Assembly (NCBI GenBank): GCA_944383315.1
Contig: CALWPB010000001.1
Location: 29,197-93,196, forward strand
Direction: 5' to 3'
DNA length: 64,000 bases
Source: an uncultured Clostridia bacterium
GTDB taxonomy: Bacteria > Bacillota > Clostridia > Christensenellales > UBA1242
The translations under genes and the position numbers were made by a program. Shown here in pieces: positions 7,029-54,363 of this stretch. The notes under the pieces are model-generated. The model was given only the letters and a program-made list of their open reading frames with translations. It searched no databases and was not told the origin of the DNA. The first letter of the stretch is position 1. The number at the start of each line of letters is the position of its first letter.

Positions 7029-9701
7029 TTGCAAAATTACACCGACAGAAATGTAGGAGGTCCTAAAAATAAACTTTCAAAGCGAGCCTCAATAGGCATT
7101 GCTGTTTTAGTTTGCTCTGTTTTTTTGCTATTTTGTATGATATTTAACTTTTTGCCTTTCATACGTTCCTTTATACTGGGCACTTTTGGAATGGCAACTT
7201 ATCCTGTACTTGTAGTTGCTTTGATAATAGGAATAATACTAGCAAGCAATAGGAAATATGTCATAGCAAAAAATTATGTAATTAGTATTTGCGTGCTTTA
7301 CTTTTTGTTAATTTGTGTTTTACAAACTGCACTGACTGATATGTCAGGTGTTGGAATGGGTGAGTATTTAAGTGATACTTATGCAGCAAAGAATACCGCT
7401 GGGGGAGTCATTGCTGGTATATTCGCTTATGGCTTTAGCGCATTATTTAATTATGTCGGCGCATATATTTTATTTGCAATAGGAGCTATAATTTGTGTTG
7501 CTTTTATGATTGATTATTTCTTGAAAATGAAAGATTATAAAAAATTAAATGCTAGAGCTGTAAGTTATCCTATTGAAAAAGAAAATAGTCGTATTCAAGA
7601 AGAAACAGTCAACGTTGACCAACAAATCACGCGCAAACAAAGCCTTATTGAGAGTATGAAAAAACAGGCTAGTGAATCTATTAGTCTTGGGTTAAATGCA
7701 AATAAAGAATTGGTAACTGTTGGAGGCTCTCAAAACGATAACGATAAAATGGCAAATGCCGTTTTTGGTGGCGATTATAAAAGTTTGGTTAATAAAGATA
7801 CAAATACAACTATAAACAATGAAGATTCATTTTCTTTGGATGATTTTATTAATCAGGCAAATAAAAATTCCTTTAATAATTTCAACAAAAACTATGAACA
7901 AAGTATGCAATATACTCCTAGTGGATACAATAGTGCAGAAATAAAGCCTAACAACCAACCGACTGAAGCGAAATTTGCAACAGATTTGCATCTTGAACCA
8001 TTGGAAGAAAAAGTTAATGAATCTATAAGTGTTGAGCAAAATACAAAAGTTGAGAGCGATTCTATACTTGATAATTTAAATAAGATGATAAATGAAGTAC
8101 CTCCAACAGTTGCTCCACCTGTAAATAATTTTAACAATGATTTAAAACCAAATAAACACGAGCAAAAGGCTACTCAACTTGAGATGCAGCAAACAAAGCC
8201 AACCCCAAATCCTACGACCACTTACAAACGTCCAAGTCCGTATGTTCGTCCACCAATAAGTTTGCTTACTACTCAATCTAGCAAACTAGATGGGAGTGAG
8301 GCGGACTTTAAGCAGCACGCAAGAGTGCTTGAAGAAACTTTGGAAAGCTTCAAGATATCAGCGAGTGTTACAGGCATTACTCGTGGACCTGCTGTAACTC
8401 GTTATGAAATTCAAATGCCTGCAGGTATTTCGGTTAAAAAGATTACTCAACATAGTGATGATATTGCAATGATGATGAAATCATACGGTGGTGTTCGTAT
8501 TGAAGCACCGATTCCAGGTAAAAACTTGGTCGGAATTGAAATTCCTAATGAGAAGATTGCGACTATAGGCTTAAACGATATAGTAAATTCACCAGAGTTT
8601 CATAATAGTAAATCACCACTTACCGTTGCATTGGGTAAGGATATTTCTGGTACGATTAAAGTATGTGATTTAGCAGCAATGCCACATTTATTAGTTGCTG
8701 GTGCAACTGGTAGTGGTAAATCTGTATGTTTGAATGTAATCCTTATAAGTTTAATTTACAAGCTTGGTATAGATGACTTGCGTTTGATTCTAATTGACCC
8801 TAAACGTGTGGAATTTACAAGTTATAACGGTTTACCTCATTTGTTGACGCCAGAAGTAATTTGTCAACCAAAACAGGCACTCAATGCATTTGATTGGGCA
8901 ATAAAAGAAATGGATGACCGTTTTGATACATTCCAGAGATTGCGTGTACGTGATATAAACGAATATAACTCGCTTGAAGCAGTATATAAAGGCAAAGAAC
9001 CTAAATTGCCAAGAATCGTTATTGTAGTTGACGAGTTGGCTGACCTTATGATGATGGCGCGCAAAGATTTGGAAGAAAAAATTATGCGTATAGCACAGTT
9101 ATCTCGTGCCGCAGGTATACATTTAATTTTAGCGACACAAAGACCTTCTGTAAATGTAATTACGGGTACTATTAAAGCGAACTTGCCTTCACGTATTGCA
9201 TTTGCTGTAAATAGTTTTGCTGATTCAAATACTATTATCAATCAAGGCGGTGCGGAAAAGTTGCTTGGTCGTGGTGATATGTTATATGCACCTCAAAACC
9301 TTCCTGAACCTGTGCGTATACAATGTCCGTTTATTACTAATACCGAAGTATTGAATATTGTCGAGTATATCAAAAATAACAACGAAAGTGATTTTGATGC
9401 GGAACGTACACAACAAATACTTGATGGAAAAGGGAATAGCAGTAGTGGCGGTGGTGGCGATGATGATTCAGATGGTGTTGAGTTTGATCCAATTTTACCG
9501 AAAGCTCTACTTGATTTCATTCGTGCTGGTACAGGTTCAATCTCTGCAATACAGAGACGTTATTCCGTAGGATATGCTCGTGCCGCAAGAATAGTTGACC
9601 AAATGGAGCAAGCAGGTTTTATCACTGCGCCTGACGGCACAAATAAAAATAGGCAAATCTTAATTGATGAAGCCAAATACAATGAATTATTTTCTAATTA
9701 A
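7029..9701 (+). CDS. ftsK: DNA translocase FtsK/SpoIIIE
   Basis: N-terminal multi-TM region and a long low-complexity linker. Motor domain with Walker A GATGSGKSV, VVDELADLMM and ATQRPS. C-terminal gamma wHTH (QRRYSVGYARAARIVDQME). TTG start preceded by GGAGG. Confidence 0.95.
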   Translation: MQNYTDRNVGGPKNKLSKRASIGIAVLVCSVFLLFCMIFNFLPFIRSFILGTFGMATYPVLVVALIIGIILASNRKYVIAKNYVISICVLYFLLICVLQTALTDMSGVGMGEYLSDTYAAKNTAGGVIAGIFAYGFSALFNYVGAYILFAIGAIICVAFMIDYFLKMKDYKKLNARAVSYPIEKENSRIQEETVNVDQQITRKQSLIESMKKQASESISLGLNANKELVTVGGSQNDNDKMANAVFGGDYKSLVNKDTNTTINNEDSFSLDDFINQANKNSFNNFNKNYEQSMQYTPSGYNSAEIKPNNQPTEAKFATDLHLEPLEEKVNESISVEQNTKVESDSILDNLNKMINEVPPTVAPPVNNFNNDLKPNKHEQKATQLEMQQTKPTPNPTTTYKRPSPYVRPPISLLTTQSSKLDGSEADFKQHARVLEETLESFKISASVTGITRGPAVTRYEIQMPAGISVKKITQHSDDIAMMMKSYGGVRIEAPIPGKNLVGIEIPNEKIATIGLNDIVNSPEFHNSKSPLTVALGKDISGTIKVCDLAAMPHLLVAGATGSGKSVCLNVILISLIYKLGIDDLRLILIDPKRVEFTSYNGLPHLLTPEVICQPKQALNAFDWAIKEMDDRFDTFQRLRVRDINEYNSLEAVYKGKEPKLPRIVIVVDELADLMMMARKDLEEKIMRIAQLSRAAGIHLILATQRPSVNVITGTIKANLPSRIAFAVNSFADSNTIINQGGAEKLLGRGDMLYAPQNLPEPVRIQCPFITNTEVLNIVEYIKNNNESDFDAERTQQILDGKGNSSSGGGGDDDSDGVEFDPILPKALLDFIRAGTGSISAIQRRYSVGYARAARIVDQMEQAGFITAPDGTNKNRQILIDEAKYNELFSN

Positions 9702-9736
9702 ATAATATACTTTTAAGTTAAAAGCAGGAGAATATA

Positions 9737-10447
9737 ATGAATTTACCTAATAAATTATCAATAATAAGAATCTGTTTGGTTCCTTTTGTAATGTTTTTCT
9801 ATCTTGCGCCATTTATTCCTTATGGCAAGATTATAGCGATTGTTCTATTTATAGTTGCCGCTGTTACAGATTTGTTTGACGGAAAAATTGCTAGAAAAAA
9901 CGGTCTTGTTACGGACCTAGGGAAACTGCTTGACCCAATCGCTGATAAAATGCTGATTACTTGTAGTTTGTTTTTAATCGTTTTCGATTTGACTATTGCA
10001 CACCCGTGGGGAATTATAGCGCTTACGATATTGTTTACTCGTGATTGTATAGTGAATGGTGTTAGACAAATTGCGGCGACCAAAGGTGTTGCTGTGGCTG
10101 CTGAAAAAAGTGGTAAAATAAAAGCGATACTCGCTTACATCTACATTCCTTTTTTTATGTTTATTGCTCAACTGAAAATAAGCCTTGCAGGTTTAGCTGC
10201 TTATGATACAGTTATGACTGTTTTCTATGTAATAGGATATATTATGCTTGCAGCAGCAACCATAGTTACTGCGTGGTCTGCCATTGATTATCCATTAAAG
10301 AATAAGGAATTAATATTACCAAAGAAAGGAACAGAAACAGCTAAAGAACAAACTAATGATACAAAAGAAACGGAATTACAAGACCAAGAAATAGAAACAA
10401 CAGACAATCAAGAAACTGAAAATACAGACGAGAAAACAAAGGAATAA
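9737..10447 (+). CDS. pgsA: CDP-diacylglycerol--glycerol-3-phosphate 3-phosphatidyltransferase with an acidic Thr/Glu-rich C-terminal tail
   Basis: CDP-alcohol phosphatidyltransferase motif DLFDGKIARK...LDPIADK. Conserved pgsA-x-recA neighbourhood. Confidence 0.85.
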   Translation: MNLPNKLSIIRICLVPFVMFFYLAPFIPYGKIIAIVLFIVAAVTDLFDGKIARKNGLVTDLGKLLDPIADKMLITCSLFLIVFDLTIAHPWGIIALTILFTRDCIVNGVRQIAATKGVAVAAEKSGKIKAILAYIYIPFFMFIAQLKISLAGLAAYDTVMTVFYVIGYIMLAAATIVTAWSAIDYPLKNKELILPKKGTETAKEQTNDTKETELQDQEIETTDNQETENTDEKTKE

Positions 10448-10453
10448 CATAAT

Positions 10454-11443
10454 TTGAAAGCAAATTTATTAGTATTTTGTGATGAAGGAAACAGCGAATT
10501 TCTAGAGCATATTATCAATTACAAGATTATGCCAGCATTTTGTTCAACAATGCAGGAAATTTCGTCTGTTTCTTTTCTTGCTTTACAATCAAGTATTCAA
10601 GAAATAACTCATTATTTGTGTGATAGCACAATAATTGCTGTCGGTTTTTGCGAGGAAAATTGTTACCGAAATATTAAAATTGCTGTTAATAATTATTATG
10701 ACGCCAAGATATTTGAAACTCCTTTTGGTGAATTTTGTCGAAATGGAAATAGATTTTGTAGTATAATAGATTTAAGCCGTTCTCAATTAGAATTTAATAA
10801 TAAATCATTACAACTTTTGTATGATGTCGATAATATTTTTAGTATAAATATTTTTGGACTAGACAAATTTGCTGTTATTGAAAAATTAAAATATTTAGAT
10901 TTTATTAATTATTTTGATTACACTTTACATTCAAGTTATGGTGAAATTCAGCTATGTTTTCATCCAGTAAACGAACAATCAAATCAATATATAACAGTTT
11001 TCAAGCGAGTACTGTATAGCAGTTTTGATAGATATATTTATAGCGATGAGTTAAAAACTTTAAGCGATTGTGTGGAGGAACTTTCCACAATAAGAAGGCA
11101 GTATTTTGCTGTATATGATTTAGTATCCCAGAATTTTATAAATCAAGAACTCTTAAAAATAAAAGGAATTTCTAATTATTTGGTTCAAATAGAGGATATA
11201 GATTTTGAATATTTAAACTCCGTAGAAGAAACAAATGAAATTTTAGTTAAATATAATTTAGACTTTGTTATATTAGTGCTAGGGAATTACCAAAATATAA
11301 GGGTTCTAGTCATTGATAGTACTGGACTTAAGAAATATGAATATTCAGTTAATAAAGAACTTAAATATAATCAAAAATATTTGTTAAATTGTGTCCTGTT
11401 TAAAATTTTTACAAAACTTCATAAAAACACTTTGTATTTTTGA
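10454..11443 (+). CDS. Hypothetical protein occupying the position usually held by cinA
   Basis: 329-aa ORF with a TTG start and a weak AAGGA upstream. I recognise no motif in it. It is Cys-containing and Asn/Tyr/Ile-rich. Confidence 0.4.
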   Translation: MKANLLVFCDEGNSEFLEHIINYKIMPAFCSTMQEISSVSFLALQSSIQEITHYLCDSTIIAVGFCEENCYRNIKIAVNNYYDAKIFETPFGEFCRNGNRFCSIIDLSRSQLEFNNKSLQLLYDVDNIFSINIFGLDKFAVIEKLKYLDFINYFDYTLHSSYGEIQLCFHPVNEQSNQYITVFKRVLYSSFDRYIYSDELKTLSDCVEELSTIRRQYFAVYDLVSQNFINQELLKIKGISNYLVQIEDIDFEYLNSVEETNEILVKYNLDFVILVLGNYQNIRVLVIDSTGLKKYEYSVNKELKYNQKYLLNCVLFKIFTKLHKNTLYF

Positions 11444-11491: not shown

Positions 11492-12550
11492 GTGGCTGAA
11501 AAAGACAAAAGCGAAGACAAGAAAAAAAATTTAGAACAAGTAATTGCTCAAATAGAGAAACAATTTGGTAAAGGGGCAATTATGCGACTTGGAGACAATG
11601 CTAGACAGGTCGTAGATGTAATCCCTACGGGGTGTTTGACACTTGATTTGGCATTGGGTATAGGCGGTGTACCTAGAGGACGTATCGTAGAGATTTATGG
11701 GCCTGAATCTTCTGGTAAAACAACGGTTGCATTACACGTAGTGGCAGAAGCACAAAAAATGGGTTGCACTGCGGCCTTTATTGATGCTGAACACGCATTG
11801 GACCCTGTTTATGCGGGAAATCTTGGTGTTGATATCAACTCATTGTATATCTCTCAACCCGACAATGGCGAGCAAGCATTAGATATTACGGAAAGTTTGG
11901 TTCGTAGCGGTAGCATAGATTTGATAATTATTGACTCTGTAGCGGCGCTTACTCCAAAAGCGGAACTTGACGGTGAAATGGGAGATGCTCACGTTGGTTT
12001 GCTTGCTCGACTGATGAGTCAAGCAATGAGAAAATTAACTGCTTATATAAATAAATCAAATGTATGTGTAATATTTATCAATCAACTTCGTGAAAAGGTT
12101 GGGGTAATGTTTGGTAACCCAGAGACTACAACAGGTGGTAAGGCTTTGAAGTTTTATTCAAGCGTGCGCCTAGACGTTCGTAAAGCTGATGTAATAAAAG
12201 ACGGCAATGAAATAGTAGGTAATAGAACACGTGTAAAGGTTGTTAAAAATAAACTTGCGCCACCATTTAAAACTTGTGAATTTGATATTATTTATGGTAA
12301 AGGTATTTCAAGGGAAGGTTGTATACTTGACCTTGCCCTTGAATATGGAATAATTCAAAAAAGTGGTAGTTGGTTCGCTTATAATGGTGAAAAAATAGGG
12401 CAAGGTAAAGAAAATGTAAAACAATATCTTGCGGATAATCCTGATATTTACGAAGAGATTGAAAATCAAATTAAAGATGAATTAGCGCCAAAAGAAACCA
12501 CACAAGATATAGAAATTGAAGATACAGAAATACAAAAAGATGCAGATTAA
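11492..12550 (+). CDS. recA: Recombinase RecA
   Basis: Canonical RecA sequence ([41 protein letters not shown]). GTG start 7 nt after AAGGAG. Confidence 0.97.
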
Positions 12551-12727
12551 CTGCGTCTTTTTTGTTTAATTAAATAGATTATTGTAAATAATATAATTTG
12601 TCTATTTAACAAATTTTAACTTGACATTTTAATAGTTATAAATTAAACTTATATGGTATATAAAATTAATGTTTTATATCAATCTAATAAGATTTTTAAA
12701 TAAATTAAAAGAGAGGAAAAAGAACCA

Positions 12728-14326
12728 ATGCTTAACTCATTAGTTGGGCTGCTTGGTTTCCAAATGAGTACCGCAGTTTTGGTAGTCACTATTTTGGGTT
12801 GCATTATAGTTGGCGCTGTGGCGGGAATTTTTGTTTTTCGTGCAATAGTAATAAAAAAAATAAATAAAGCCAAGAATTCCGCATCAAGCATCATAGAAGA
12901 TGCTAATTTGGAAGCTAAAGCCATCATAAAAGAGGCGCGTCTTTCGGCTCAAGAAGAGTCTTTAAAAATCAAAACTGATACAGAAAATGAACTGAAAGAA
13001 AGACGCGTAGAAATAGAAAAATTAAACAATCGTTTTTTACAAAGAGAAGAGTTTATAAATAATCGAGAGCAATCTTTGGAAAAGAAGAATGATGCTCTTG
13101 AAAGTTTTAAAGAAAAACTTGATAATCAAGAAAAAAAATTAAATGCTAGACAAGAAGAACTTGATAAGAAGAATGCTGAAATTATAAAAGAACTAGAAAA
13201 AGTAGCCGGCTTAACAAAAGAAGAGGCTAAAGATAGACTTGTCGCGCAGATTACAGATGAAGCAAAGCACGATTCAGCTTTGAAATTGCGTGAAATTGAA
13301 CAAGATTTAAAAGACAATTCGCACAAATTGGCAACTGAAATCATATCAAATGCTATACAGAAGTACTCTGCTGATTTAACAAGTGAGACAACAGTTTCAA
13401 CTATTGATTTACCAAATGATGATATGAAAGGTCGATTAATTGGTAGGGAAGGTCGTAATATTAAAGCAATAGAAATGGCTACTGGTGTAGATTTAATTAT
13501 TGACGATACTCCTGAAACTATTGTTATTTCGGGATTTGACCCTATTCGTAGAGAAGTTGCTCGTATCGCTATTACAAAATTAATTCAAGACGGCCGTATA
13601 CATCCAGCGAGAATTGAAGAAACCGTTGCTAAAACTCGAAAAGATATTGAGCACGAAATCAAAGAAGCTGGAGAAGCGGCAGTGCTAGAAACAGGTATAA
13701 TCGGCTTGCATCCTGAACTTGTAAAAACACTTGGTCGTCTCAAATATCGTACAAGTTATGGTCAAAATGTTTTAAAACATTCTATAGAGGTTTCGTTTAT
13801 TGCTGGTATGCTGGCAGCAGAACTTGGATGTGATGAGATGATAGCAAAGCGCGGTGGATTATTACACGATATAGGCAAGGCTGTTGACCACGAGGTTGAA
13901 GGAACACACGTAACAATTGGGACACAACTTGCGCGTAAGTATAAGGAAAATGACAAGGTTATAAACTGTATTGAAGCTCATCACGGTGATGTCGAATTTA
14001 ATTGCGTAGAGGCAGTATTAGTACAGGCAGCTGATACAATATCAAGTGCTCGTCCTGGGGCAAGACGCGAATCAATAGAAAACTATGTAAAACGCCTTGA
14101 AAAGCTTGAACAAATCGCAAGTTCCTTTGATGGCGTAGAAAAAGCTTATGCTATTCAAGCTGGTAGAGAAATCCGCGTTATTGTTAAGCCAGATAGCATA
14201 TCAGATGAACAATCAGTAACGCTTGCAAGAGATATTGCAAAGAGAATTGAAGCCGAGATGGAATACCCCGGTCAAATCAAAGTAAACGTAATCAGGGAGT
14301 TTCGTTCTGTAGATTTTGCTAAGTAA
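12728..14326 (+). CDS. rny: Ribonuclease Y
   Basis: N-terminal TM, coiled coil, KH domain ([17 protein letters not shown]) and HD domain (LLHDIGKA). An alternative start at 12764 is possible. Confidence 0.95.
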
Positions 14327-17726: not shown

Positions 17727-18659
17727 CTAAGAAATTTTGCCGTAACGGCGTTCTTTTAAAATTTCAAGATAAATATCTTCAAGACTCTTTGTAACTACAG
17801 AAGTCCCGTAAATAGTAAGATTACGACGTCTTAAATCATTGATAATGTCATCAAACTTTTCTGGTATATATGGAATAATTACAGAATTACCAGCTAATTC
17901 CACATCCAAACCGTGTTTTAGGGAAATAATTTTGCCTGCGTAATTTGGATAATCAACTCTAATTCTAAAGCGCTTTTGTGAATTACTGTTATTTTGGAAA
18001 TCGTCCATTGTTCGCATTTCAAGAATACTGCCTCGGTCAAAAATTGCTACTGTATCACATAATTGTTCCATTTCAGACAAAACGTGGCTACTCATAAAAA
18101 TACCCATATTGTTTTTAGCAGCCAATATTTTGAGTGTTCTTCGTAATTCGATTACTCCATTTACATCTAGTCCGTTTGTTGGTTCATCAAGGATAAGTAA
18201 TTTTGGATTATTAAGTAATGCTTGGGCTAGGCCTAATCGTTGGCGCATTCCGTATGAGTATGTTTTTACTTTGTCATCTATACGATTTTCGAGTCCAACA
18301 GTTTTTATAATCCTGTCAATGTCATCTTTTTTGATTCCTTTAATAAGACTTGCAAAATAATTGAGATTTTGCCGACCTGTCATATATGCATATAACTGGC
18401 AATTTTCCATTACTACACCAATATTAGCAACTGCTTGTTCAAAATTTTTCTGCACTGATTTGCCACATATAAACACTTCACCAGAAGTAGGAGCACTTAA
18501 ACCACTGATAATACGAATTAAAGTAGATTTTCCTGCACCATTAGGACCTATAAACCCAAAAATTTCACCAGCATAAACTTCAAAATTCAAGTTTTTTAAA
18601 ACTTTCCGTTCACCATAAAATTTATTTAAATTTACGATATCCAAAACTTTTTCACTCAA
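17727..18659 (-). CDS. ABC transporter ATP-binding protein
   Basis: Walker A GPNGAGKST, signature YSYGMRQRLGLA, Walker B LLILDEPTNGLD. Confidence 0.95.
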   Translation of the reverse strand: MSEKVLDIVNLNKFYGERKVLKNLNFEVYAGEIFGFIGPNGAGKSTLIRIISGLSAPTSGEVFICGKSVQKNFEQAVANIGVVMENCQLYAYMTGRQNLNYFASLIKGIKKDDIDRIIKTVGLENRIDDKVKTYSYGMRQRLGLAQALLNNPKLLILDEPTNGLDVNGVIELRRTLKILAAKNNMGIFMSSHVLSEMEQLCDTVAIFDRGSILEMRTMDDFQNNSNSQKRFRIRVDYPNYAGKIISLKHGLDVELAGNSVIIPYIPEKFDDIINDLRRRNLTIYGTSVVTKSLEDIYLEILKERRYGKIS

Positions 18660-18747
18660 TTACCCAAAAACCTCCAACTTTATTCTATAAAACTACAAAC
18701 TTTTATAAAATAATTTTAACATAACCTAAATTAAAAGTAAAGTATTA

Positions 18748-18776
18748 TTGACTTTGTTCATATTATTTAATATAAT
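18748..18776 (+). promoter_or_regulatory. Sigma-A promoter of the TVP38-family gene (likely leaderless transcript)
   Basis: TTGACT (18748-18753), 17-nt spacer, TATAAT (18771-18776). The ATG at 18783 lies 6 nt after the -10 and has no SD. Confidence 0.6.
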
Positions 18777-30178: not shown

Positions 30179-31497
30179 TAATTTATTCTTCCTATTAAGT
30201 TTCCTTTGTTGTATTCAATTATATCAATATCATAAAAATTGCCTACTTTTAGTGGCTTTTCTTTTGCAATTTTTACCACCTTACCACACTGGGCTTTGCC
30301 TATGTATTCCTTGGTATTTTCAGTATCAAGAAGTACTCGTATTGTTTTCCCTATCATTTCCTTGAAAAGTTGTTCGCTGATTTCGTGTTGAATTTCAAGT
30401 AAATTGTGTATACGTTCACGTTTCACGGCTATTGGTACTTGATTTTCCATTTTTTCAGCAATCGTGCCTTTTCTTTTACTGTACATAAATATAAAAGCAT
30501 TGTGATAGCGTACCTGTTTTATTAAATCAACAGTCTGTTGATAATCCTCATCTGTTTCACCAGGGAAACCTACGATAATATCCGTTGAAAGAGTAATTTC
30601 AGGCATTTTTTCTCTAATCTTTTCAATTAAATTGAGGTAAGCTTCCTTTGTGTAACTTCTATTCATTGCTTTTAATGTTTTGTTACTGCCCGCTTGTACT
30701 GGTAAATGCAATGTTTTACTAATTTTAGGGCATTTAGCCATTACTTCAATAACTTCATCGCTTAAATCTTTTGGATGTGAAGTCATAAAGCGCAATTCAA
30801 AATCGCCATCAAAGTTTGCAATCGTTTCAAGTAGTTTCGCAAAATTTGTACCGTCAGTGTTTCCGTCCAAACCATAAGAATTAACATTTTGTCCTAAAAG
30901 TGTAATAACTTTGTAGCCCATTGCAAGCAAATTTTTAACTTCTTGATAAATTGCCTCAGGCGCCCTACTTTTTTCTCGCCCCCTTACATAAGGCACAATA
31001 CAATAAGTACAAAAATTATTACAGCCATACATTATGTTTACATACGCGTACAATGCATTATCACGAACACAAGAAACACTCGCTATATTCTCGCTATACT
31101 GTTTATCTGCCTCTACTTTGTTTAGAAATTTACGTTGAGAAAGATAAGTATCAAGATATTCTCCAAAATATTCAATATTGTTAGCCCCAAAGACTATGTT
31201 AATAAATGGGAACTTTTTACGTAAAGTTGCCGCCATATCTTTCTGTTGAGCCATACAGCCACAAACTGCAACAATTAAGTCTTTTTTTGCTTTTTTTATA
31301 GGCTTAATAGCGCCAATATTGCCCAGTATTTTCTGTTCTGCACTCTCACGAATACAGCACGTATTAAATACAATAATATCAGCATCTGTGGCATTTTCGG
31401 CTTTACTATATCCTTTTTCTTCTAGTATGCCTGCCAATTTTTCTGTTTCGTGCACATTCATCTGGCAGCCATAAGTGTATATAAAGTATTTTTTCAC
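30178..31497 (-). CDS. miaB: tRNA-2-methylthio-N6-dimethylallyladenosine synthase MiaB
   Basis: UPF0004 N-terminal domain (YTYGCQMN), radical SAM CNNFCTYC, C-terminal TRAM domain. Confidence 0.93.
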   Translation of the reverse strand: MKKYFIYTYGCQMNVHETEKLAGILEEKGYSKAENATDADIIVFNTCCIRESAEQKILGNIGAIKPIKKAKKDLIVAVCGCMAQQKDMAATLRKKFPFINIVFGANNIEYFGEYLDTYLSQRKFLNKVEADKQYSENIASVSCVRDNALYAYVNIMYGCNNFCTYCIVPYVRGREKSRAPEAIYQEVKNLLAMGYKVITLLGQNVNSYGLDGNTDGTNFAKLLETIANFDGDFELRFMTSHPKDLSDEVIEVMAKCPKISKTLHLPVQAGSNKTLKAMNRSYTKEAYLNLIEKIREKMPEITLSTDIIVGFPGETDEDYQQTVDLIKQVRYHNAFIFMYSKRKGTIAEKMENQVPIAVKRERIHNLLEIQHEISEQLFKEMIGKTIRVLLDTENTKEYIGKAQCGKVVKIAKEKPLKVGNFYDIDIIEYNKGNLIGRIN

Positions 31498-31613
31498 TTT
31501 TTCACCTGTAAAATAAGTAATTTATAATACCTAAATTATACATTATTTTATTAAATTTATCAATAATAATTTATAATTTTTATATTTTGAAACATAATAA
31601 TGTTGAGGTCGTT

Positions 31614-50327: not shown

Positions 50328-50413
50328 ATAGCACCCCGCTCAAATGTTCTAATTAATTATAGAACAAACGAACAGAAAAAGCAAACATTTTTAACCATTT
50401 TTTGTAAAATTTT

Positions 50414-50427
50414 CGAAAAAATGTTCG
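50414..50427. promoter_or_regulatory. Candidate LexA (SOS) box upstream of recN
   Basis: CGAAAAAATGTTCG matches CGAAC-N4-GTTCG with one core mismatch. A half-site relative, agaacaaacgaac, lies at 50361-50373. Confidence 0.5.
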
Positions 50428-50538
50428 CATACAAAAAATACAGGCGTGGTTTACCTGTATTTTAACAATGATAAGTCCAAATATTTTAAGCAACTTGTTG
50501 CTTACGAGCAAATTTACCTAGCATAATGTAAATTTGAT

Positions 50539-52814
50539 TTAAACTAAATCATCATAATTGTTGTCAACATCATCATTAGTTGCCTCATCTGATTCAATTT
50601 CACGGAATACCGCTTTAATTATCTTGCCGTTTACTTGCTCTTTGGTAAGATTAATACTCAAAGCAGTGCCGAATGTTTCGGTTTCGTCATTAGCATTTAC
50701 CCAACCTACAAACTCATAGCCAGTATATGCCACAGCAATAAAAGTTACAGTGTCAGTGTCCGCACCGTTGGCTATATCGTTACCAACCATACGCACTTCA
50801 CCGCCCGTACTTGCTGTTGCTACTGTACCCACTATACCTACTCCACCACTTGTTGGCGGTACTTGATATACAGGTTTTACGGTTGAAAGATTAAAGTTTA
50901 TATCAATGCTATCGTATACGTCTTCTAATTCAATGACAAAAACATTTGACGTGTCTTTTGCTGTGTAGCGAACTTGTAGAGCACCACCCGCGCCAAAGAT
51001 TTCCGCACGGTAGTATGTTGGGAATATCTCTGCACCGTCTATGGTGATTGAATGTACATACTGACTTGTAGCAGGGCGCATAATTACCAACTGCACACCT
51101 GATTCATTTTTGTACATTTCGATTGTCCCGCTACCACCCGAATAATCGGCTGTAATACTAGCGGTTGTCCCCACATAATGCCCGATTGTAACATTGTGTT
51201 GACCGTGTGGCAAATTCGTGAGTTCGATTACAACATTATTTTCATAAATATTGTGCGCGTAGTCTAATGCTCCGCTTGGAATCATTACTCTACCGCTACT
51301 ATTATTCCCGAACAACCTTACCGTTACCCCGTCTATGGTAAACTGAATATTTTGATTTTGTGAGAATGTCGCCACAATTTCGGCGGTTGTATCAAAATAT
51401 GTGTCGGGAGTGATACAATTATCTTGAATTACAAGGGTTGAATTGTTTGAAGAAAGATTAAATAACGATGTTGCGTTTCCTACTATTGTGCTATTTTGCG
51501 TCAAATTCGTAAGTATTACAATAACTTGATTATTGTTGCGATAACACTTGTATTGAGCGCCCGAAACGGTCGAGAAACTGCCTGGGGCAGTTTCCGCAAT
51601 AGTTACAGAACTCCCATTTATTGTTATTGAATTTATGTAATATTTGTTGTTTGCGGTGTACGTAAATGCGTGTTGCGCACCAGAATTTTTGACGTAAAAA
51701 GCGGAGTTAGTGTCTAATTGCGCCCTATCGGTCGCGGCGCTCGCCAAGCTCGCGGAGATAGTATAGCCCGCTTCGCTGGCTAACTGATTTAAAGAGAGAT
51801 GAGCGGCAGGACGGACGCCGCCCGCGCACGAAAACCCGAGAAGAAAAAAAAACGCGCCCGAGGAGAACCCCCGAGCAGACCAGCCGACTACAAAGAGCCG
51901 GAGCGCAGCCAGCAATATTGACTTGTACTTTTACCATCTAATGCAGTACTACTTGTATCCTTCCTATCATTAGCGGATGTTATCCCCCATAATCCACGGT
52001 CGTTATATGCTCCCGTCTGGTCTGGGGTATTAAATATTTCTACATGACTCGGTAACCAAAACTTATCACTATAAACACTACTGTCCCAACTCCAACCATT
52101 TGGATTTGCGTTTGCTTTACCACTGCCGCTATTAGCGTTTGTTCGCATGCCGTTTGTTATAGACCAATAACTTGTACTGCTATAATAAGCATTTTGTTGT
52201 GTGGCTTGCCAAGTGGCGCCCGCTTCACTAGGAGATTTTATTATAGCATTTAAGGTAGTAAACTTACCTGCTAATTTGCTATAAATATTCTTTGTAACTT
52301 CACGTATTAAAGAATTTGAATAGTTACCTGTTTTAGAGTAATTATTTGAACTTGTTTTCCAGCCACTATTTGAACTTGTTCCGTTATTAAAGTATTCACT
52401 TGTGTAACTATTAGCCATCCAAATTGTTAAATAGCCATTACGTAAATATGTAGCCTGCCAAATGATTGGCTTACTTGCATTTATAGTACCATTTGGATCC
52501 ACATAATATCCCATTTGGAATACAAATGAGCCGCTGTTTCCTGTACGACTTGCAATTTGTGAAGATGTCAATGTAGTTGAACTTGTAATGCTAGTATATT
52601 GCAACTTTGTTAAAAATTTACTAACATTTTCCGCATTTAAAGAGCCGTCTGTATTAAATAAATTACCTATAGTAGCATCGGCTGATTGTGTAGTTGCATT
52701 TGCGTTGTTTAAGTGGTATACAATCAAGTATGCCCCCGTGCCGACAAGCGCGCCAAACATAAACACTACCGCTACTATAATACTTACTAGCCTTGCTTTT
52801 GCGCTTAACTGCAT
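50539..52814 (-). pseudogene. Cell-surface protein gene split by a -1 frame change (true frameshift, assembly error or hypervariable site): TM anchor + DUF6273-like/lectin-like domain + beta-rich region + Listeria-Bacteroides-type repeat
   Basis: ORF 51888..52814 has an N-terminal TM and ends YCWLRSGS-stop. ORF 50539..51915 has only a TTG with no SD and begins in the -1 frame with ...GGVRPAAHLSL, which completes the WLRS...GVRPA domain end. C-terminal GYEFVGW repeat motif. Confidence 0.6.
51801..51915 (-). other. Adenine-free (coding strand), about 64% GC patch with an internal T9 homopolymer
   Basis: Hand count on the + strand: 1 T (51889), about 40 A and about 74 G+C in 115 nt. A9 run at 51844-51852. 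The GC-rich island extends down to about 51716. Confidence 0.9.
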
Positions 52815-53025
52815 AACACCACCCCCTTCGCTATTTTAGAGCGGGTATTCTGTTGTTTCTCTCTTTCTTCTCTCCGCCCACTAGATAGACTCCTAGTCCT
52901 TATATAAGGCATTTGTTTTCTTCTCCTTTTATTTAGTATATAGTTATTTTAGCATTTTTTATGTAAATTAGTAAAATAAATTTGCACATTTTTACATTTT
53001 TTCCAAAAAATATTAAATAGAAAAC

Positions 53026-53050
53026 AAAAAAGAGTGAATAAATCACTCTT
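53026..53050 (-). terminator. Rho-independent terminator after serS
   Basis: Stem agagtga/tcactct with a 5-nt loop and a T-run on the minus strand. Confidence 0.7.
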
Positions 53051-53073
53051 TTATAATCTTCTATATATAAATA

Positions 53074-54363
53074 TTACTTCTTAGGTTCGATGCGCTCCAT
53101 ACCGTTCATAAATGGGCGGAGCACTTCGGGTATTGTAACACTACCGTCTGCGTTTTGGAACTGCTCAACAATAGCGGGAATAATACGCGGTGTTGCAAGT
53201 CCACTACCGTTTAACATATGGATAAACTCGTTTTTACCGTCTTTTGTACGGTAACGGGTATTACTGCGACGTGGTTGATAACTGCGTCCATTACTTACAC
53301 TACTTACTTCCTTATATATATTCATACTAGGTATCCAAACTTCAATATCATAAGTTCTGCACATAGTAGCGCTGATATCACCTGCAGCGAGTTTAGAGAT
53401 TTGGAAGTGTAGCCCCAATTTCTCAACAAGTGTACGTGCCTTGTTTACCAATTCTTCAAACATAGCATCGCTTTGTTCGGGAGTGGTATAACCTATCATT
53501 TCCACTTTATTAAACTGGTGTCCGCGAATCATACCGCGTTCTTCGGCTCTGTAACTGCCTGCTTCTTGTCTAAAACAAGGTGAGTATGCGAACATACGGA
53601 AAGGCAGACTTTCTTCGGGAATAATCTCACCTGCATACAAATTAACCATAGCACTTTCGGCAGTTGGCAACAAGAATTGTTTTGCGCCGTCTTCACTGCC
53701 CGCTTTGTCTACATAATAGACTTCATCAGCAAATTTGGGGAACTGTCCGCTACCAAAACCGCATTTTTCATTGAGCATTTGAGTAGGAAGCACGAATTCA
53801 TAACCGTCTTTTAGGTGTTCGCTAATGAAGAAATTGAGCAAAGCCCATTCAAGTTGAGCACCGACTCCCCTATATATCCAGAAACCGTTACCACTTAATT
53901 TTGCTGCGCGTTCGTAGTCTATAAGCCCAAGGCTTGTGCACAAATCAACGTGGTTTTTAGGTTCAAAATCAAACTTAGGTTTTTCACCAAATGTATAAAT
54001 AGGTTGATTATTCTCTTTGCCACCCGCTACGATATCATCATCAGGCATATTTGGTAGCCCGTATTGAATATCCTGCCATTCGGTAGTCAAAGTATCGAGA
54101 AGTTGCTCTGCTTCCTTAATTTCATCACCCAAAATACGTGTTGAGTTGATAATTTCGTCAACTGGCTTCCCTTCTTTCTTTAACTGTGGCACAAGGGCTG
54201 AAGCCTTGTTGCGCTCTGCCTTTTTGTTCTCAATTTCGTTTAACAATTTACGGCGCTTTTCGTCTAATTCAAGAAAATACGCACTATCAAAGTCAAAACC
54301 ACGTTTTGCGAGCGCTTGCTCGACCTTTTTGGGTTCGTTTCTTATTAAATTAATATCAATCAT
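53074..54363 (-). CDS. serS: Serine--tRNA ligase
   Basis: N-terminal coiled-coil arm (MIDINLIRN...). Class II motifs (FRQEAGS, RGHQFNKVE, GSGLATPR). Confidence 0.95.
   Translation of the reverse strand: MIDINLIRNEPKKVEQALAKRGFDFDSAYFLELDEKRRKLLNEIENKKAERNKASALVPQLKKEGKPVDEIINSTRILGDEIKEAEQLLDTLTTEWQDIQYGLPNMPDDDIVAGGKENNQPIYTFGEKPKFDFEPKNHVDLCTSLGLIDYERAAKLSGNGFWIYRGVGAQLEWALLNFFISEHLKDGYEFVLPTQMLNEKCGFGSGQFPKFADEVYYVDKAGSEDGAKQFLLPTAESAMVNLYAGEIIPEESLPFRMFAYSPCFRQEAGSYRAEERGMIRGHQFNKVEMIGYTTPEQSDAMFEELVNKARTLVEKLGLHFQISKLAAGDISATMCRTYDIEVWIPSMNIYKEVSSVSNGRSYQPRRSNTRYRTKDGKNEFIHMLNGSGLATPRIIPAIVEQFQNADGSVTIPEVLRPFMNGMERIEPKK

Follow-up and report, generated by a model that had tools for sequence, protein, structure and literature searches.

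Chromosomal diversity-generating retroelements (DGRs) that serve several remote targets, such as the TvpA type of Treponema denticola and the Lineage-4-like DGRs (Wu et al. 2017, PMC5758913), act on a surface protein in which the variable region (VR) closes a C-lectin-like domain; a G+C-rich element and then an inverted repeat come after the VR, and a single template supplies paralogues at scattered genomic sites. DGRs are known to give rise to indels at AAC repeats, frameshifts and changes at bases other than adenine, and to have remote targets (PMC5758913), and the C-lectin-like DGR targets listed for gut phages include DUF6273, in the ‘tentaclin’ receptor-binding proteins and the targets of Faecalibacterium prophage DGRs (PMC10743442, PMC11792537). 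Here we describe a 64,000-nt stretch of the genome of an uncultured Clostridia bacterium (assembly GCA_944383315.1, contig CALWPB010000001.1, positions 29,197 to 93,196; hereafter ‘the window’), in which a surface-protein gene on the minus strand is broken in two within a tract that has practically no coding-strand adenine. The locus resembles the TvpA-type systems in its surface-protein target and in its VR, which ends a C-lectin-like domain and precedes a G+C-rich element and an inverted repeat; the single template with paralogues scattered over the genome is seen in a relative, a Hadza gut metagenome-assembled genome (MAG) with five VRs. Unlike in those systems, the window has a rearranged VR that has lost its adenines and a gene that is broken, in an allele fixed in several strains. 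With the tentaclins the gene shares the Pfam family PF19789 (DUF6273), matched by its relatives, but it is a cellular gene, lying between serS and recN, with a membrane anchor, InlB B-repeats and no phage context. In our view the patch is probably a dead VR in a gene targeted by a DGR, produced by adenine-specific mutagenesis that went to completion and by rearrangement.

The patch spans positions 51801–51915 of the window and has the + strand composition A40 C39 G35 T1. It is the sole 115-nt stretch with three or fewer Ts across the 64 kb, and no 115-nt stretch has three or fewer As. A 115-nt stretch with no more than one T has a probability of about 4e-19 at the T frequency of the window, which has a G+C content of 33.8%, and of about 3e-9 if T is set at 18%. 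The G-poor + strand stretches at 18572–18755 and 31487–31601 are ordinary A+T-rich intergenic and promoter DNA. The features of the patch and of the gene that it interrupts are as follows.

51888..52814, minus strand: ORF1 (open reading frame 1), 308 aa, with the N-terminal membrane anchor and most of the DUF6273-like domain, ending ...YCWLRSGSL-TAG within the VR
50539..51915, minus strand: ORF2, 458 aa, the same gene in another frame, reading ...GGVRPAAHLSLNQ..., then immunoglobulin-like (Ig-like) repeats and a C-terminal InlB B-repeat (Flg_new_2)
51799..51914, minus strand: VR remnant of 116 nt with its T9 run, containing the adenine-free patch 51801–51915; its ends are identical to those of the VR of locus L035
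51888..51890, minus strand: TAG stop codon that terminates ORF1 and carries the sole coding-strand A of the patch
51844..51852, minus strand: T9 homopolymer (coding strand), of strain-dependent length (T7, T8 or T9)
51835..51875, minus strand: three copies of the scaffold motif [GT]TCT[GCT]CTCGGG, seen on the + strand as CCCGAG at 51835–40, 51857–62 and 51870–75
51799..51828, minus strand: G+C-rich 3' end of the VR, an element resembling the initiation of mutagenic homing (IMH) site, TGCGCGGGCGGCGTCCGTCCTGCCGCTCAT; adenine loss ends at its 3' edge
51765..51781, minus strand: imperfect hairpin AGCCAGC-GAA-GCGGGCT, 17 nt past a CAT codon, with one stem mismatch
51716..51798, minus strand: G+C-rich coding flank HLSLNQLASEAGYTISASLASAATDRAQLD, 3' of the VR, which has adenines and is ordinary coding sequence common to the intact allele
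51821..52632, minus strand: allelic cassette, comprising the DUF6273-like domain and the VR middle, without DNA similarity to L035 (10183–10935)

An earlier reading, made from the letters of the window without database searches (the sequence-only reading), had proposed a DGR-type variable region here, and its raw observations largely hold. The single T in 115 nt was recovered on recounting and is unique in the window; the one coding-strand adenine does create the TAG at 51888–51890 that ends the upstream ORF; T9 sits inside the patch; and the downstream ORF (50539..51915) does resume in a different frame with GGVRPAAHLSL. The hairpin that it placed at about 51761–51777 is present, about 4 nt away from there, and folds with a predicted energy of -5.6 kcal/mol (z = -2.0). 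Its proposal that every A had been replaced by G or C is not needed: the coding-strand base fractions (A.01, C.30, G.34, T.35) fit replacement by all three bases, and are those expected if every A of a typical template repeat (TR) of the family were replaced by the three other bases.

When joined, ORF1 and ORF2 match single proteins of 700–860 aa from uncultured gut Clostridia. The architecture of this family runs from an N-terminal membrane anchor through a DUF6273-like domain, the motif CWLRSG, 26 variable residues and GVRPA(A/C)H to Ig-like repeats and an InlB B-repeat. The relatives match PF19789 as far as position 171 of 172 of the profile, at the VRPA motif, in agreement with the earlier proposal that WLRS...GVRPA closes a DUF6273-like domain, and the patch fills precisely the CWLRSG...GVRPA interval that closes this match. 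The profile assignment comes from the relatives: ORF1 has no Pfam match, and neither ORF of the window reaches the Pfam threshold for DUF6273. A run of T10 or T7 would place WLRSG and GVRPA in one frame with the spacing typical of the family, although the TAG would still stop translation.

The C-lectin-like (DUF6273) surface-protein family of the window gene is a real DGR target family, as shown by complete cassettes that combine a reverse transcriptase (RT), bAvd and a TR in related uncultured gut Clostridia, at loci L023, L031 and L032/L034, and by the adenine-specific TR/VR mismatches of the first two. In L023, the Hadza gut MAG, RT (RVT_1) and bAvd are followed by a TR encoding WSRSSNNNNSNNAYNVNPSGSSNNNNNVNNSNAVRPA, and the DGR has five VRs in paralogues spread over several contigs. 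In each of four of these VRs 18–19 of the 40 TR adenines are substituted (to G in 36 cases, to T in 25 and to C in 14) and 21–22 are kept (52–55%, about 53%), while mismatches at other bases number 6–10 per TR/VR comparison and fall mostly at the repeat ends, outside the diversified core. The second cassette, L031, has 19 of its 22 TR/VR mismatches at TR adenines; the third, L032/L034, is known here from its TR, which is of the same type. About 30 homologues share the VR-type scaffold G.S.....A[ML].V.SSGSA.....V..S.G, with residues reachable from AAY codons at its variable positions, and the A content of the family VRs is 0.15–0.21 as against 0.01 in the patch.

The surroundings of the patch conform to the same plan, and the patch is a VR of this family. 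Downstream of each family VR stand ...CGTCCTGCGCTTCAC, a gap of about 15 nt and a hairpin (7-bp stem, 3-nt loop); in the window the VR is followed by ...CGTCCTGCCGCTCAT, 17 nt and then AGCCAGC-GAA-GCGGGCT, and this arrangement of G+C-rich element and hairpin is the same as that after the VRs of L010, L011, L025 and L031. The limits of the VR remnant correspond to the limits of TR/VR homology in the DGR of the Hadza MAG.

Several further observations concern these related loci. The target gene beside the L023 cassette is also split (ORFs 9000..10025 and 9986..11281), by a 1-nt deletion in the VR opposite an AATAAT stretch of the template. In the frame of the target protein the TR of L031 (3239–3370) contains a TAA stop codon (GN*SN), which fits untranslated templates. 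MAG contigs that bear paralogues (L005–L008, L012, L013 and L017) begin or end within residues ~285–400, near the VR, the outcome to expect where assemblies are interrupted by heterogeneous VRs or by repeats among paralogues.

At the level of structure, two predicted domain models (pLDDT, the predicted local distance difference test score, of 70–72) had no Foldseek match with E < 0.5, although three C-type lectin domains were among the top ten matches (E 1.3–3.2), and a PDB profile search for the domain fold yielded no match. The best structural match to the model of a homologue domain, itself non-significant, was the Thomasclavelia ramosa IgA peptidase 9qa6 (E 0.56, 68 columns). In the homologue model the VR is predicted to form a beta-hairpin at the end of the domain, with strands at 272–276 and 282–286.

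An intact counterpart exists at the same chromosomal position. In L035 (GCA_964315415.1), which is syntenic with the window and 98.1% and 98.8% identical to it in the two flanks, the gene encodes an uninterrupted 738-aa protein, relative to which the window has a premature TAG and a change of frame. The VR of L035 consists of TGCTGGCTGCGCTCCGGCT, 78 nt and GGCGTCCGTCCTGCCGCTCAT (117 nt in all, with 19 As) and encodes the canonical scaffold YSYYSNYALRVDSSGSAVISSVNNSH. The first 19 nt of the VR (51896–51914) and its last 21 nt (51799–51819) are the same in the window and in L035, as is the hairpin but for its loop (AGCCAGC-GCA-GCGGGCT in L035), and from 51820 downstream the ORF2 DNA is 98.8% identical. 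The adenine-free tract begins one base before, and stops one base short of, the stretch bounded by these shared blocks. The allelic cassette in which DNA similarity is absent, 51821–52632, is bounded by the membrane-anchor region on one side and the VR 3' end on the other. The DUF6273-like domains of the two strains cannot be aligned as DNA. That of L035 resembles paralogues P0007 and P0008, a likeness that suggests paralogue exchange.

Alleles of further strains were taken from the 90%-identity clusters of ORF1 and ORF2. The same patch is present in six other assemblies (L001, L036, L037, L038, L039 and the contig of P0195), which derive from at least five ENA samples; the patch-bearing strains differ from the window by 1.1–2.5%. 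Relative to the window, the alleles are the following.

L001: T8 and no other change, the run being the sole difference from the window in 21.4 kb
L036: T8, with a 35-nt deletion (51783–51817)
L037: T8, with a 35-nt tandem duplication of the VR 3' end (51794–51828)
L038 and L039: T7, with two point changes
P0195: T9, with a 22-nt deletion removing WLRSGSL-TAG and one point change

The patch differs among the seven assemblies by indels and three point changes (T>G, G>A and T>C). The TAG is kept in six of the seven alleles and is lost only in P0195, where the 22-nt deletion occurred at a TTG microhomology and the resulting allele, with T9, is out of frame. The patch is present in all seven alleles that have the window-type N-terminal domain, and none of them has a working VR; no open allele was seen among the T7, T8 and T9 variants. 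The L036 deletion and the L037 duplication, each of 35 nt, lie at the same VR 3' junction and look reciprocal, with no obvious microhomology. The patch is thus real and heritable, an indel hotspot that does not vary in the manner of a DGR. The sequence-only reading was right that the tract is the VR of a DGR target family; it was not right about active hypermutation, since one adenine-free sequence is fixed across the seven assemblies and its polymorphism is of the indel type. In the first 29 related loci, no A- or T-poor 100-nt stretch was found besides that of L001, whose sequence is that of the window.

What the middle of the patch derives from can be read in part from its alignment to the canonical VR. 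The two do not match in register. With gaps, the first half is collinear: the patch reads T---CTT--TGTAGTCGGC--TGGTCTG..CGGGGGTTCTCCTCGGGC where the canonical VR reads TACTCTTACTATAG-CAACTATGCTCTG..CGAGTGGACTCCTCGGGC. Substitutions in this half fall mostly at adenines of the canonical VR and are accompanied by indels; in an alignment neutral to A its score was reached by 4 of 500 shuffles. Matches of the patch middle to L035 were equalled in 3 of 200 shuffles, and the scaffold motif that the canonical VR has once (GGACTCCTCGGGC) occurs three times in the patch. The TAG of the patch aligns to an out-of-frame TAG inside TAT AGC of the canonical VR. At a retention of 52–55%, the probability of keeping at most one of 20–40 template adenines is 7e-6 to 4e-12. 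Given this retention in the family VRs, one normal homing event cannot explain the patch, which bears out the caveat of the sequence-only reading that complete loss of adenine exceeds classical DGR output.

The gene encodes a membrane-anchored surface protein in which a VR of ~117 nt closes the DUF6273/C-lectin-like domain, with a G+C-rich element and a hairpin after it. Under the explanation that we favour, a DGR acting in trans (RT, bAvd and TR) would use the VR, element and hairpin to overwrite the VR with adenine-mutagenised cDNA. In the allele of the window, adenine mutagenesis would have been complete instead of affecting about half of the sites, and template slippage alongside it would have produced the triplicated scaffold motif (CTCGGG), several indels of 1–6 nt and the T run. 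These changes would have put a TAG that had been out of frame in frame and caused a frameshift, splitting the gene into ORF1 and ORF2. We infer that a DGR reverse transcriptase made the patch and that completion was reached either by cumulative rounds without reset or in a single event with total misincorporation. Cumulative rounds may have been possible if the donor was a template copy that was itself depleted of adenine.

A template approaching that condition is found in L032, where template-plus-spacer modules are duplicated (11833–12177 and 12501–12845, 669 nt apart), as they are in L034 (from 2259 and 2927). The first template, TR1, reads TCCTAGTCTAGTGTTGCTGTTTGTGTGTCT in its 5' half: of 30 nt, 2 are A, a TAG lies in frame and 4 nt net have been lost; the matching place in TR2 has 20 As in 34 nt. 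The adenine-depleted TR1 is identical in the two samples. Template self-mutagenesis was reportedly engineered by Guo and colleagues in 2008, with a TR carrying the IMH in Bordetella phage BPP-1. Engineered ‘TR self-mutagenesis’ is also described for DGRec (bioRxiv 10.1101/2025.03.24.644984). When the master copy is the target, adenine loss becomes cumulative and irreversible, which makes this the simplest route to an adenine-free repeat. Unlike those engineered cases, the present one would comprise a natural end-product and a natural half-depleted template copy (L032/L034), for which self-homing would be the putative route. In its strongest form, which we think improbable, this idea would hold that some DGRs of gut Clostridia possess, next to the normal template, a second, self-homing ‘burnt-out’ copy whose cDNA is installed as a fixed adenine-free, stop-containing and slippage-prone null cassette; the patch would then exemplify the installed product, and TR1 of L032/L034 an incipient donor.

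Several results weigh against mutagenesis gone to completion as the origin of the patch. The second half of the patch aligns poorly to the canonical VR, deriving the patch from that VR calls for at least five indels and several substitutions at bases other than A, and T9 requires either eight consecutive A-to-T changes or an expansion by slippage. No machinery lies nearby: a motif scan of the 64 kb found neither RT nor bAvd (no convincing YxDD or SQxxAN ORF), the Pfam-annotated syntenic loci have no RT, bAvd or TR, and an adenine-tolerant sliding comparison found no template-like copy in the window (best 90/115, which is noise); the sequence-only reading had already noted that reverse transcriptase, Avd and template repeat are missing from the 64 kb. 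A degenerate pattern of the patch allowing the base or A at each position (15 plain bases) had no match in genome, viral and metagenome contig collections; these apparently lack the source species, which makes this negative weak evidence. Among the seven assemblies there is no variation of the patch at adenine sites. Two intact alleles differ at a single VR residue (D/N), so that current DGR activity in this species is unproven. The paralogue P0045, inferred to lie on the same source contig, retains a normal VR with adenines, which argues against one exhausted template serving all targets.

Other searches for a donor were negative as well. The spacer motif AATTTCCCGTATT was not enriched, a 26-mer from the 3' flank had no match in metagenome contigs, the VR ends gave one unrelated match and otherwise none in viral contigs, and the canonical VR had no match in a phage collection. 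The closest RT relatives, P0066 and P0067, were rejected as the template source, since their WSRS-type templates fail to match it.

Four other accounts of the patch were weighed, of which ordinary slippage decay fares best, although we consider it unlikely. In this account a DGR-type VR has ends and a scaffold that are free of adenine from the outset; the gene broke first, and adenine-bearing variable codons were then deleted, A-free scaffold duplicated and the T run grown with no adenine mutagenesis involved. Several observations speak for it: the patch contains three scaffold-motif copies and other short internal repeats, and live examples are seen in the other strains (the 35-nt duplication, the 35-nt and 22-nt deletions, and T7/T8/T9). 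Moreover, 40 of the 116 nt are A-free VR ends common to the intact allele. However, segments outside the scaffold also lack A, and in the collinear first half the adenines are mostly substituted rather than deleted; with A at 24%, as in the middle of the canonical VR, a 77-nt segment would have no more than one A with a probability of about 2e-8. Drift in a genome of 34% G+C should in addition yield A and T, not strip A alone.

Nor does the gene look like one that has been decaying for long. Comparison of the window with L036 gives ratios of nonsynonymous to synonymous differences (pN/pS) of 0.18 for ORF1, 0.06 for ORF2 and 0.03 for recN, and comparison with L038 gives 0.26, 0.10 and 0.06, respectively, all from small counts. 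Relaxed selection on the two ORFs was not found in these comparisons (0.06–0.26 as against 0.03–0.06 for recN). The gene halves are therefore not drifting as a long-dead pseudogene would, and slippage decay, if it occurred, has not been long-running. The patch itself has 0 substitutions relative to L036, 0 relative to L037 and 2 relative to L038, where a pS of 0.05–0.13 predicts about 6–15 in 115 nt (probability of 0 substitutions relative to L036, at most 1e-3). Such a deficit points to a patch that recently spread, or was homogenised, among strains that are few and share ancestry.

The same figures could be expected if the patch is not a relic but the off state of the surface protein, a null cassette still being copied, in different strains, from a conserved adenine-free donor, namely a burnt-out second TR of a DGR at another place in the genome. 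This account draws on the patch being less diverged than neighbouring synonymous sites, on the purifying selection on both gene halves, on run-length and junction indels of the kind expected of repeated error-prone reverse transcription and integration (PMC5758913), and on the two-module cassette of L032/L034, with one module depleted of adenine and carrying a TAG. We nevertheless assign it a low probability. No donor was found in the window or in the scanned genome, viral and metagenome collections. The mismatch-free tract relative to L036 is 360 nt long and extends past the VR on both sides, which fits ordinary recombination better than homing, or at the least makes recombination as likely as re-copying from a donor. 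Finally, the patch is null in seven of seven alleles with the window-type N-terminal domain, and the strains are few and of common ancestry.

A contingency locus, in which slipped-strand mispairing of the T run toggles the surface protein (phase variation), is very unlikely. As in homopolymer contingency loci, the T7–T9 run lies in a surface-protein gene and is polymorphic, even between otherwise identical assemblies. Unlike in such loci, there is no on-state among the seven alleles and the stop codon is independent of the run: the TAG lies upstream of the run in six alleles, the seventh is out of frame, and the T7 alleles, which are in frame, are stopped by the TAG all the same.

That errors of sequencing or assembly created the patch, at a site that is hypervariable or rich in G+C, is barely credible: family MAG contigs often break near the VR, the VR with a 1-nt deletion in L023 gives a precedent, and T9 against T8 as the sole difference between the window and L001 over 21.4 kb may be a homopolymer miscount, but the comparison of orthologues that the sequence-only reading had proposed finds the A-free patch in six other assemblies, which were built separately from at least five samples and represent strain backgrounds 1–2.5% apart. 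Moreover, A is the most frequent base at template-adenine sites, and a consensus over diversified reads should favour it rather than remove it. Three further readings were rejected outright. An intrinsic terminator (hairpin plus T run) does not apply, the run lying within a gene whose intact allele has no such run; gene conversion from a high-G+C homologue does not apply, such genes still having about 15% A; and A-to-I editing does not apply, the replacements including C and T.

The wider setting of the gene is that of the chromosome of a spore-former, with serS, class-I lysS, recN, spo0A and spoVA as neighbouring genes; the class-I lysyl-tRNA synthetase gene (PF01921; 54376–55932) adjoins serS in this genome of a spore-forming Clostridia bacterium. 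No phage genes were found in the annotated neighbourhood of the serS–recN locus, and an Rfam search of 50400–53100 returned no match.

DGRs are described as keeping their master template intact, so that diversification can be repeated indefinitely. An adenine-less VR, together with a related second template that is half depleted, would be natural evidence of a DGR that exhausts itself and destroys its own target. It bears on how DGRs die, on how often hypermutation costs the host a gene, and on whether the loss of such a surface protein is selected. It also offers a signature for spent DGR targets that detectors of TR/VR pairs miss, namely an adenine-free tract bounded by VR ends. For the family itself, the analysis adds cellular, membrane-anchored DUF6273/InlB-repeat proteins of uncultured human-gut Clostridia to the targets of DGRs, with a single template for at least five paralogues in the Hadza MAG. 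Should the patch prove to be the cassette of a burnt-out donor, a retroelement would, besides diversifying its surface protein, also switch it off.

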